A stretch of 64,000 bases of DNA from Lachnospiraceae bacterium (GTDB taxonomy: Bacteria > Bacillota > Clostridia > Lachnospirales > Lachnospiraceae): NCBI GenBank assembly GCA_963643215.1, contig CAVIJY010000002.1, forward strand, positions 1,073 to 65,072. Direction: 5' to 3'. Below are positions 14,715 through 53,330 of the stretch, in pieces. The notes under the pieces are model-generated. The model searched no databases, was not told the DNA's origin, and saw nothing but the letters and a program-made list of their open reading frames with translations. The first letter of the stretch is position 1, and each line of letters opens with the position of its first letter. The translations under genes and the position numbers were made by a program.

Positions 14715-14771
14715 CGTATTACCTCACCGCATTTTTATAAATATGCATTTCTCGCAACTTTCGCCGAATTA

Positions 14772-14841
14772 TGGTTCGGGTGCACCCGAACCTCCGATTA
14801 CTCGGATTGTTTCGTGCTTCGCACTCCCACAATCCGGTCTC
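14772..14841 (-). repeat. Structured intergenic repeat, family 1, copy A
   Basis: Near-identical to 23634-23702 and 47244-47313. Contains the perfect 20-bp palindrome GGTTCGGGTGCACCCGAACC plus a nested hairpin GGATTGT..GTGC-GAA-GCAC..ACAATCC. Confidence 0.85.
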
Positions 14842-14985
14842 CATTCGGATTCTCGTGGGGCTTTTGCCCCACTTCATCCTCATTGAGAGGCGTGTCATAA
14901 ACTCTATCTCCCACCGACATGTCCCTAAAGGGACTAGCTGCGCGTCGCAGCATGTCGTGGGAGATGAGTTTTGACACTGTAATCA

Positions 14986-14994
14986 ATTATATCA
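14986..14994 (-). promoter_or_regulatory. Extended -10 promoter element (TGATATAAT) for the amino-acid ABC operon leader
   Basis: Minus strand reads TGATATAAT about 270 nt upstream of the permease start. The -35 is weak. Confidence 0.45.
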
Positions 14995-15562: not shown

Positions 15563-15638
15563 AAAAAAACCTCCTTCTGATATAGGAGGGGGATACAGGC
15601 GCAGAAAGCACGCCTTTCGCGCGCTCTGCAGTATCAAT

Positions 15639-15747
15639 GCTTCCTTCCGCCGGCATTATCCGGTTCAAGTTATAAGGGTCAGCCGCGACACGCACCCGGT
15701 ATCAAACCTCCGTGCATACGCCGGCCTTCTCAGCATCTGCTCCCCCA
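15639..15747 (-). promoter_or_regulatory. TPP (THI-box) riboswitch
   Basis: Minus strand reads GGGGGAGC..GCTGAGA..ACCCTTATAACTTGAACCGGATAATGCCGGCGGAAGGAAGC, which matches the THI-box core. Downstream, CCCTCCT could sequester the AGGAGG Shine-Dalgarno. Confidence 0.88.
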
Positions 15748-15825
15748 GCAATTTGGACACTTACAGTATATACAAAAAGCCTGTTAAAGCAACAGTGATT
15801 TCTTTCTTCTGCATCAACAGGTCTT

Positions 15826-23427: not shown

Positions 23428-23633
23428 CTTGTCCTATCTCCTTTTTAACGCATTAAAAGCGCGACACCTCGTCACCTTGCGAAATGTCCGCACCTGTTAA
23501 TCACTATAAAAGTGACTACAATCCCTGTCAAGGCGAAAGTCAACTGATGCTGCAATGTGGCGCTGAAGCCATGGCTGTGAGGATACACGGCCGAGTCTGA
23601 TCTCCGGACAGCTGCGGTTCGTGCTCTCAATTA

Positions 23634-23702
23634 TGGTTCGGGGTGCACCCGAACTTCCGGTTACACGGATTGTTTCGTGCTTCGCACTCCCACACTGTAA
23701 CC
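23634..23702 (-). repeat. Structured intergenic repeat, family 1, copy B
   Basis: Same core as copies A and C. The outer stem is changed in a compensatory way (GGTTACA...TGTAACC instead of CGGATTGT...ACAATCCG). Confidence 0.85.
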
Positions 23703-23802
23703 AATTATCTTGTCATTCTCAACATGCAACTCTTGCTTGCTTTCGGCATCTGTCATGGTATAAGTAAGAACGACAACGGCTTCATACATTTGTTGCAAAG
23801 GT

Positions 23803-36364: not shown

Positions 36365-36475
36365 AAAAACCAGCTCACATGTAAATCTCTGTGACCTGGC
36401 AACTGGCTGGCTGCAATGCCGCAGCCCCTATAGCTTTGCGTCATCGGATCGCTCCGATTTTGCCTTCTTTTCAAT
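36363..36475 (-). promoter_or_regulatory. c-di-GMP-I (GEMM-I) riboswitch R1 with terminator
   Basis: Minus strand reads AGAAGGCAAAATCGGA-GCGA-TCCGATGACGCAAAGCTATAGGGGCTGC..GCAGCCAGCCAGTTGCC. A CCAGGTCACA..TGTGAGCTGG hairpin and T7 follow. Confidence 0.85.
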
Positions 36476-47243: not shown

Positions 47244-47313
47244 TGGTTCGGGTGCACCCGAACCTTCGGTTACTCGGATTGTTTCGTGCTTCGCACTCCC
47301 ACAATCCGGTCTC
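47244..47313 (-). repeat. Structured intergenic repeat, family 1, copy C
   Basis: Same 70-nt element as copies A and B. It lies intercistronically between 47368-48288 and the giant gene. Confidence 0.85.
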
Positions 47314-47367
47314 AATTCGCGAATGCTCTACGGTAGTTGCGATCGCTTGTCTCGGTGAAGTGAGATG

Positions 47368-48288
47368 TCACTCAACCGTGACAGATGTGATGTCGGCATT
47401 AAAGTTCTCGGTTACACGCTGGTTCAGTCGTCCCGACAGAGACTGATAATTGCTGTTCAGATAAACTTCAACCAGAGCCTGTGAGTAGTCAAACTTTATG
47501 AAGAATACCGCTGTAGTGATGCCGTTGTCATATGTGGTGGTATCATAGCCCGAGAAGTTAAATGTCAGGCTGTTTGACTTGGTTGCATCTCCAAGCTCTG
47601 TATATCTTCCGTGCGCCTCAGGAATGGCCGAAAAAAAGCTTTTTAGCTCCGGCGCGCCCTCGCCGCTCCATGTCAGCCCCTTGCAGCCCTTATATACCGT
47701 ATCCGCGTCTGTCTCAGTCTCCAGTGAGGGTATCTGCACAGCCTGAGCCGCAACTACATTAGATAGATTCAGAGCGATATTTCCCTGAGTCCAATGCTTG
47801 TCAGCATCTGTTTTCGTGTATCTCAGTCCCTCATCATCTGTGGCATTCTTCAGATCTCCGGTGTTTTCCCGGTTCAGCGTGACTGTGATATCACCCTTGT
47901 CGGACACCTTCTGACCGGCTATGGTCAGGCGCATGTATACGGCTGTATCCTCGTTCCTTCCGACTACGGCATCATATCCGTTCATGGAGACCTTATCTGG
48001 AGAGCTGATCACAGCTCCGGTCGCTGATATCTTTCCGTCACTGCCGGTTGTCAGCTCACCGTAGTAAAGATTGCACTCGGTGACAGCCAGCTGTGTATCA
48101 TCCGATACTATGGCCGTCTCTCCTCTCTGAGCGATGCGGCCGAAGACCTGCCATGCTCCCGTCAGCGCGGCTGCCATGATCACCACCGACAGCAGCGCCA
48201 GAACAGCCAGTATTGCAGTAACGCCGCCCTTTCCTCCGGGCAGAGAAAAGGGCGGACGCTTTTTATCATTATCCTGTGAACTCTTCAT
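47368..48288 (-). CDS. Secreted/membrane protein with weaker SipW-like signal (LTGAWQVFG)
   Basis: ATG at 48288, 6 nt after GAGGAG. It has a TM/signal but no W-x-EG-x-D C-terminal motif. Confidence 0.5.
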   Translation of the reverse strand: MKSSQDNDKKRPPFSLPGGKGGVTAILAVLALLSVVIMAAALTGAWQVFGRIAQRGETAIVSDDTQLAVTECNLYYGELTTGSDGKISATGAVISSPDKVSMNGYDAVVGRNEDTAVYMRLTIAGQKVSDKGDITVTLNRENTGDLKNATDDEGLRYTKTDADKHWTQGNIALNLSNVVAAQAVQIPSLETETDADTVYKGCKGLTWSGEGAPELKSFFSAIPEAHGRYTELGDATKSNSLTFNFSGYDTTTYDNGITTAVFFIKFDYSQALVEVYLNSNYQSLSGRLNQRVTENFNADITSVTVE

Positions 48289-49544: not shown

Positions 49545-49650
49545 AAAAAATCAGCCGCTGCAAATATATATTATCTGCAACTGGCTGACTTATTCAAGTC
49601 CCTTTAGCTTTGCGTCACCGCTTCACAACGGCTTTGCCCCTCTATTTGTG
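49543..49650 (-). promoter_or_regulatory. c-di-GMP-I (GEMM-I) riboswitch R2 with terminator
   Basis: Minus strand reads GAGGGGCAAAGCCGTT-GTGA-AGCGGTGACGCAAAGCTAAAGGGACTT..AAGTCAGCCAGTTGC. The terminator is TCAGCCAGTTGCAGAT..ATTTGCAGCGGCTGA plus T8, and its 5' arm overlaps the aptamer 3' strand. Confidence 0.88.
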
Positions 49651-53218: not shown

Positions 53219-53330
53219 AAAAAAACACATCTGCACCCTTTCGAAGCACAAATGTGGCAACTGGCTGACTGAGATCCCAGTCCCTCTAGTTTTGCGTCAC
53301 AACCTCACGATTGCTTTGCCCTTATCACTT
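53219..53330 (-). promoter_or_regulatory. c-di-GMP-I (GEMM-I) riboswitch R3 with terminator
   Basis: Minus strand reads AAGGGCAAAGCAATC-GTGA-GGTTGTGACGCAAAACTAGAGGGACTGGG..TCAGTCAGCCAGTTGCC. A CACATTTGTGC..GTGCAGATGTG hairpin and T7 follow. Confidence 0.85.

Follow-up and report, generated by a model that had tools for sequence, protein, structure and literature searches.

The window analysed here (64,000 nt of a Lachnospiraceae draft genome) carries on its minus strand three copies of a structured sequence, hereafter A, B, and C, which the first-pass annotation had described as a 70-nt element at 14772–14841, 23634–23702, and 47244–47313. All three are present at these positions, far beyond chance, the 26-nt core GGGAGTGCGAAGCACGAAACAATCCG having exactly three occurrences in the window, where shuffled sequences give an expectation of 0.00. 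Copy A lies beside a gene encoding a 229-aa ABC permease and directly downstream of a thiamine-transporter gene headed by a TPP riboswitch (15625–15756), and copy C lies downstream of a gene of 306 aa. Besides the TPP riboswitch, three c-di-GMP-I riboswitches (36395–36474, 49573–49648, and 53253–53330) were found on the minus strand of the window, all four at the Rfam gathering level.

Copy A is a full-length element (14772–14985; TGATTACAGTGTCAAAAC...CCCGAACCA), composed of a four-stem fold and a tail hairpin. The first-pass annotation had recognised no known riboswitch or leader consensus and suggested an Rfam search; run on the window, this search identified the fold of copy A (14795–14985, minus strand) as Clostridiales-1 (RF01699) with 115 bits, covering model positions 1–166 and all four stems (gathering score, 48). 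Weinberg et al. (2010; PMC2864571) described the Clostridiales-1 motif as a large structure of four stems that is very common in human-gut DNA, covaries, and is not consistently associated with any gene. The 70-nt unit is therefore too short as drawn, since the RF01699 match of copy A is complete and extends to 14985 on the upstream side; the repeat is genuine, but its limits were set wrongly. In copy A, the tail hairpin is the perfect 20-nt palindrome GGTTCGGGTGCACCCGAACC at 14773–14792. Alignment of filled and empty alleles places the repeat ATAATT on both sides of the element, at 14985–14990 (left) and 14767–14772 (right), and the boundaries of copy A are set by the empty site in other strains; the left ATAATT shares the first T of the element when the termini are read as TG...CA.

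Copy B (23634–23703, minus strand) is a mini form, in which the left end TGGTTACAGTG is fused to the distal part of stem P4 (TGGGAGTGCGAAGCACGAAACAATCCG), followed by the 3′ strand of stem P1 and then the tail hairpin, with flanking ATAATT at 23703–23708 and 23629–23634. Copy C (47244–47319, minus strand) corresponds to the right-hand 76 nt of the element (consensus positions 139–214, 96% identity), comprising the end of the P3 3′ strand, P4, the P1 3′ strand, and the tail hairpin (47245–47264); a degenerate weak match reaches 47378, and no clear flanking duplication was found around this copy, which is a truncated or rearranged form of the element. Both score below the RF01699 cut-off (36.4 bits for copy C and 20.2 bits for copy B) and are fragments of members of that family; with our own covariance model (R1, see below), copies A and C scored 179.5 and 40.3 bits, respectively. 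Upstream of copy C, the 306-aa gene has its stop codon in 47368–47378 (...ACG GTT GAG TGA), a region with a weak resemblance to the left end of the element (GGTTGAGTGACA versus GGTTACAGTGTCA); judging from this resemblance, the last codons of the gene may derive from the insertion. A cyanobacterial origin, prompted by a GCGATCGC site near copy C, was considered and dropped.

Several details of the first-pass description hold at this level. The hairpin GTGC-GAA-GCAC is found in all three copies, and no U tract follows the tail hairpin, which continues into ATAATTCGG, AATCTTTCG, or ATAATTGAG, so that an intrinsic terminator was not found in copies A, B, or C. The palindrome is perfect in copies A and C, as had been claimed for the element in general, and carries two changes in copy B (GGAAGTTCGGGTGCACCCCGAACC).

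The whole unit is about 190–214 bp long and reads TGGTTACAGTGTCAAAA, four-stem fold, tail hairpin, CCCGAACCA. In the RF01699 alignment of copy A, P4 is composed of GGAUUGU / GGGA / GUGC-GAA-GCAC / GAA / ACAAUCC, which is the nested hairpin noticed at first pass, and the GUAAUCG that follows belongs to the closing stem P1 as its 3′ strand, the matching 5′ strand (UGAUUAC) being located 190 nt upstream. Given this placement of P4 and the P1 3′ strand, the 70-mer is the last third of the four-stem motif plus a hairpin outside the Rfam model; the tail hairpin omitted from RF01699 carries the right end of the element. The left terminal inverted repeat, TGGTTACAGTGTCAAAA, is made up of the P1 5′ strand and the start of P2, and the right one, TTTTGACACCCGAACCA, sits in the GC-rich tail hairpin 3′ of the fold. 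With the right end in reverse complement, TGGTTCGGGTGTCAAAA, the left end agrees at 14 of 17 positions (13 of 16 without the terminal base). The complete tail hairpin is GGTTCGGGTG-TTTTGA-CACCCGAACC, of which the 26-nt form GGTTCGGGTGTTTTGACACCCGAACC occurs in other copies and genomes; the palindrome of copy A represents the right terminal inverted repeat and its internal complement with the TTTTGA loop deleted. In the genome to which the window belongs, 48 copies have the 20-nt and 8 the 26-nt form. Complete units in other genera are arranged likewise: the left end TGAT(N3)AGGGTCAAAA comprises the P1 5′ strand and the P2 start, the tail hairpin loop and 3′ arm TTTTGACCC(N4)ATCA, which repeat the left end in inverted orientation, lie 3′ of the P1 3′ strand, and the units are flanked by a 5-bp duplication of the form T-N-N-N-A.

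This anatomy also explains the stem change in copy B, which had been read as structure-preserving covariation of an outer helix. The supposed replacement helix GGTTACA/TGTAACC is helix P1, which is present in every full copy (TGATTAC/GTAATCG in copy A versus GGTTACA/TGTAACC in copy B), and the 3′ strand ACAATCCG of the supposedly exchanged helix is kept in copy B, only its 5′ partner being lost. The covariation argument is thus wrong, because the pairing in copy B results from a deletion. Copy B reads GGTTACAG/TGTGGGAGTGCGAAGCACGAAACAATCCGTGTAACC (the slash marking the junction), lacks P2, P3, and the P4 5′ strand, and is an internal-deletion derivative joining P1 to distal P4; the same junction recurs at seven loci in this genome. 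Most of the seemingly 5′-truncated copies keep the 5′-terminal GGTTACAG and are therefore internal deletions as well. Length variation of another kind is seen at the copy A site, where two strains (L016 and L014) differ by a 25-nt insertion/deletion at the tip of stem P2 (GCGACGCGCAGCTAGTCCCTTTAGGGA versus CG), both forms being also present among the copies within this genome.

The genome itself is a 1.97-Mb draft in 133 contigs with 50.8% G+C. The genome-wide copy count proposed at first pass gave 88 RF01699 matches at E ≤ 1, about 45 of them above the cut-off, and BLAST with the 214-nt consensus gave 122 pieces, which merged to about 110 instances (0.7% of the genome). The units span about 65–214 bp and are short, non-coding, and multi-copy, and the full-length copies of the main lineage (n = 23) have a mean identity of 91%. 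Because 29 of the about 110 instances lie within 130 nt of a contig end, the repeat breaks the assembly. Judged against a crude set of genes called from ORFs, the copies are essentially all intergenic; where they seem to overlap a gene, the ORF is short and spurious or its start is over-extended. Of 75 placed copies, 27 are in divergent regions, which contain promoters and are over-represented, since they account for only 12% of all intergenic regions and 20% of the intergenic length. The upstream flanks of the copies are unique, so that the unit has no promoter of its own. That the three copies in the window point the same way, as the first-pass annotation had noted, is a coincidence (62 minus- and 48 plus-strand copies genome-wide), and a link to particular downstream genes is not borne out: between co-directional genes, 19 copies are sense and 18 antisense, the neighbours are unrelated, and no recurring neighbour gene was found beside the copies in 80 public loci. 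The consistent sense placement in 5′ untranslated regions of related genes that a riboswitch or cis-regulatory leader should display was accordingly not found. Random orientation, positions inside genes, and absence of covariation had been named as marks of a selfish repeat; orientation is indeed random, whereas copies almost never lie inside genes and the full fold covaries strongly between lineages. A clear match to a known RNA family had been named as speaking against novelty, and RF01699 is such a match.

The distribution of the family is patchy. Copies per genome within the genus number 47, 2, 9, 44, 0, 1, and 1, those within the family range from 0 to 40, and about none are present in sixteen other families sampled from the order. 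The exact P4 core was found in 81 stretches from many Lachnospiraceae metagenome-assembled genomes (MAGs) and isolates, of human, rabbit, reindeer, roe deer, and goat origin; cultured carriers of this core include Fusicatenibacter faecihominis and Lachnospiraceae AC3007. Near-identical copies also occur on MAG contigs (L103, L068/L081/L083, L036, and related loci) labelled Alistipes onderdonkii, Bulleidia sp., and Oscillospiraceae; these are likely binning or labelling errors, or else horizontal spread. Within this genome, P3–P4–tail units form tandem arrays with a 120-nt period (C10:42690–42877, C27:11062–11384, and C92:3990–4167), whose junction, from its sequence, looks like a recombination between ...GGGTGTTTTGACAC and ...GAGTTTATGACAC. 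Diverged Clostridiales-1 lineages are likewise found in tandem arrays (C23:931–1450 and C64:5753–6281), one consisting of three exact 180-nt units and another of irregular P4-like hairpins.

Direct evidence of mobility comes from the flanks and from the alleles at the copy A site. Among 24 copies with both ends, 12 have a perfect 6-bp flanking repeat (e.g., ATAATT, ATACTT, AATATT, and AAAGTT), and the mean flank match of 4.9 of 6 positions compares with 3.46 ± 0.19 after random re-pairing of the flanks, the flank logo being A-W-W-N-T-T on both sides. In another MAG, seven of seven further copies are flanked by repeats of this type, all of them perfect. Counting the terminal T and A as part of the element gives a duplication of 4 bp (NNNT) in an A/NNNT/T target, and leaving them out gives 6 bp; two copies with G in the left flank and A in the right favour the 4-bp reading, and the data fit either length. 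The exact 229-aa ABC permease beside copy A is encoded on 20 public contigs, and of the ten places shown among these, four have a spacer of 314 nt between the permease and the upstream thiamine-transporter gene, one has a spacer of 289 nt, and three have a spacer of 96 nt, the two longer lengths representing the filled and the shortest the empty state. The filled allele (...TTATAATT/GGTTAC...CGAACC/ATAATT/CGGCG...) was aligned with TTATAATTCGG, the sequence of the empty copy A site being ...CTGTGTTATAATTCGGCG...; the alignment is clean, showing a clean insertion polymorphism among strains with an identical permease. In the closest sister species, the orthologous copy A site is also without the element, but is partly masked and too divergent for a clean empty site. 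At the sites of copies B and C, the search yielded no empty allele, the contigs ending in the repeat or the neighbouring proteins being absent from public records.

Copy A is inserted in an extended -10-like box (TGTTATAAT) that is intact on the left, with the element starting about 7 nt later. As this box was left intact, transcription probably covers copy A from the very first bases of the element, and probably as the leader of the ABC operon. This promoter-adjacent position is a property of that site, not of the family; targeting of -10 boxes by the element was considered and rejected, as only 10 of 24 copies have a T before the duplication. At the site of copy B, the left junction (GATAATT/GGTTACAG) is identical in four other strains, in which it is followed by the first ~55 nt of a long-form element and then a deletion into the flank. 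The presence of a different derivative at the same site indicates that derivatives also arise in place by deletion or conversion, and some mini forms may have arisen in this way and not by transposition.

Taken together, we consider it very probable (roughly 85%) that the three 70-mers are the right-hand parts of one family of non-autonomous DNA transposons (MITEs). The features found are those of a MITE: short, non-coding, multi-copy units with terminal inverted repeats, target-site duplications, and an empty site at copy A. The Clostridiales-1 four-stem fold forms the body of the transposon, which inserts in either orientation into intergenic A-W-W-N-T-T sites with duplication of 4–6 bp, and the inserted copies then decay by internal deletion, as in copy B, or by truncation, as in copy C. 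The structured leader of the ABC operon and the intercistronic hairpin would be by-products of the landing sites and not designed regulation; the elements are not gene-specific regulators. Of the three readings offered at first pass (an RNA stability or processing element, a protein-binding operator, and a REP/MITE-like repeat), the last was the right one.

The fold is very well conserved. A covariance model (R1), built from six copies and the Rfam-derived structure, gave 103 matches (in the window, 20 loci of this genome, and 69 public loci), in which 92.9% of pair cells are standard pairs, as compared with 30–42% when the 3′ partners are slid by 1–3 columns, with a covariation score of 0.284 versus 0.03–0.04 for the slid partners and changes on both sides in 55 of 60 pairs. 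These counts lean towards the model, as the alignment was fitted to R1, and the cells are not independent events. P1 is expected to covary anyway because it also serves as the terminal inverted repeat, an explanation that does not extend to P2–P4. Lineages of this genome that differ considerably in primary sequence have their stems and the loop motifs AUGAG, GCGAAU, and GGGAG...CGAAGC in common. There are 115 G-U/U-G cells versus 81 A-C/C-A cells, a weak bias that fits selection at either the RNA or the DNA level; the pair statistics look like neutral decay of single copies and not purifying selection on an RNA strand. The near-equal numbers suggest that selection acts on the spreading lineages, not on each inserted copy. 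A plain MITE gives no account of hairpins P2–P4 and loops that are conserved across lineages with diverged ends. We tentatively raise the possibility, which we hold as rather less than probable, that the fold is a functional module needed by the element as single-stranded DNA or RNA, for example, in recruiting or positioning a transposase or host factor. If so, the need for the fold would explain the compensatory conservation of hairpins and loops across lineages that differ in ends and duplication lengths, and the family would represent a structured-nucleic-acid-dependent class of bacterial MITE.

The same fold could be taken to mean that Clostridiales-1 is a multi-copy small RNA gene or a cis-acting leader, which acts through its structure on neighbouring genes or in trans, with its repetition being secondary. 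The high proportion of paired cells (92.9% against 30–42%) with compensatory changes in 55 of 60 pairs, the conserved loop sequences across lineages, and the probable transcription of copy A, about 7 nt past an extended -10 box, are in line with such a role. It is nevertheless unlikely in view of the random orientation relative to genes (19 versus 18), the unique flanks without a conserved promoter, the lack of a U-tract terminator, the target duplications and the empty allele in strains with identical flanking genes, and the copy number of 0–47 among sister species; G-U cells (115) also barely outnumber A-C cells (81), unlike what purifying selection on an RNA would produce.

Two other modes of spread deserve consideration. 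Target duplications, terminal inverted repeats, and an empty site with a clean duplication argue against a palindromic repeat of the REP/BIME type, for which a single-strand Y1 transposase (RAYT or IS200-like) would act on the hairpins, since REP and IS200/IS605 elements are not known to make target duplications or to have terminal inverted repeats. Although the family is high-copy, intergenic, and hairpin-rich, forms tandem arrays with 120- and 180-nt periods, and coexists with a partial Y1_Tnp gene at a contig end of this genome (C14:29928–30113), the closest sister species has 44 copies without a Y1 match, and we regard this mode as quite improbable. Highly improbable is a SINE-like retro-element copied via an RNA intermediate that needs the fold: it would agree with the conserved fold and with the many copies that keep the 3′ end with a varying 5′ start, but the duplication is of fixed length, terminal inverted repeats are present, full copies have both ends defined, and the 5′-truncated ones are mostly internal deletions.

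For the preferred DNA transposon reading, movement would require a transposase supplied in trans, presumably a DDE enzyme and most likely one of the IS3 family, acting by copy-out-paste-in. Searches for DUF772/IS1182, IS66, DDE_Tnp_1, IS1634, rve, and Y1 transposases revealed in this genome only IS1634-family fragments (on C1, C28, and C102), an IS21-like element (on C102), and the partial Y1 gene, with no IS3, IS66, or DUF772/IS1182 transposase. The ends of the IS1634 and IS21 elements have no resemblance to the MITE ends; matching ends were likewise not found at DUF772, IS66, IS4/5, and most rve loci of relatives, and no transposase with MITE-like ends was found in this genome or the MITE-rich relatives sampled. 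The IS1634-family fragments match NCBIfam NF033559, and one has a duplicated flank of about 92 bp. The contig ends C1:1–760 and C28:1–1100 hold the C- and N-terminal parts of one IS1634-family transposase, with the same flank of about 92 bp (ATTATCCTTTTTTTTGCAGTCGC...GAAATCCCCCTC) on both sides, which suggests a very long target duplication; IS1634 is known for such duplications. On C102, the IS21-like element (IstA of 539 aa and IstB) is situated next to or within the C-terminal portion of a second IS1634-family transposase.

The closest resemblance was found, among rve loci of relatives, in an IS3-family element of gut Lachnospiraceae (G023:C32), the right end of which, GTCTTGACAACTGAACCA, is identical to the MITE right end, GTTTTGACACCCGAACCA, at 15 of 18 positions at the terminus. 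Among 301 loci, the pattern TTGACANNNGAACCA occurs only in MITE loci and loci of this IS3 element, with about 0.1 expected by chance. The MITE termini are TG...CA, and the right end carries an outward TTGACA 9 nt from the CA terminus. IS3-family ends finish with CA-3′, and these elements transpose through a minicircle, in which the outward -35 of the right end contributes to a junction promoter (PMC3219604). The MITE thus resembles IS911, IS2, and IS3 in its TG...CA termini, short AT-rich duplication, and outward right-end TTGACA (PMC3219604), and differs from the IS3 family in having no transposase gene and a duplication that may be 6 bp, as against 3–5 bp. Because its left end matches that of the MITE poorly (about 10 of 18), it was not found in this genome or its genus, and the genome holding it has no Clostridiales-1 copies, the IS3 element is regarded as a relative of the true helper and not the helper itself. 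This element is widespread, with at least 585 confirmed stretches in a metagenome-contig scan, many of them from human gut. Its ends (L189 and L204–L283) are conserved as TATAATGG...CCACTATA, several copies having 3-bp duplications; when abutted with a 3-bp spacer, they give TTGACA-17 bp-TATAAT, a textbook minicircle junction promoter.

Short, non-coding, high-copy intergenic elements in either orientation are known from other bacteria, including Correia elements of Neisseria, ERIC/IRU of enterobacteria, and RUP/BOX of Streptococcus pneumoniae, which have inverted-repeat ends and short duplications, form stable hairpins when transcribed, and are often co-transcribed with their neighbours. The Clostridiales-1 element resembles them in these traits and differs in sequence and host group (Lachnospiraceae); its core is a four-way junction with three covarying hairpins, in contrast to the single long hairpin of the others. 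The element thus belongs to a known RNA family and to a known kind of mobile element, and the link between both was not found in the literature searched, in which Clostridiales-1 was not described as a mobile element or repeat. The Rfam entry RF01699 lists it as an sRNA gene of unknown function, whereas here it behaves as a transposon body, with ends in inverted repeat, target duplications, and empty sites.

Rfam has listed the motif as an orphan "sRNA" since 2010, and finding it in the body of a transposon reclassifies it, which also cautions against treating Clostridiales-1 copies as gene-specific leaders. Its transposon nature accounts for many contig breaks in Lachnospiraceae assemblies, and its insertions provide strain-level markers of presence or absence. 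Of wider interest is what makes a mobile element retain so elaborate a fold, with four stems and covariation.
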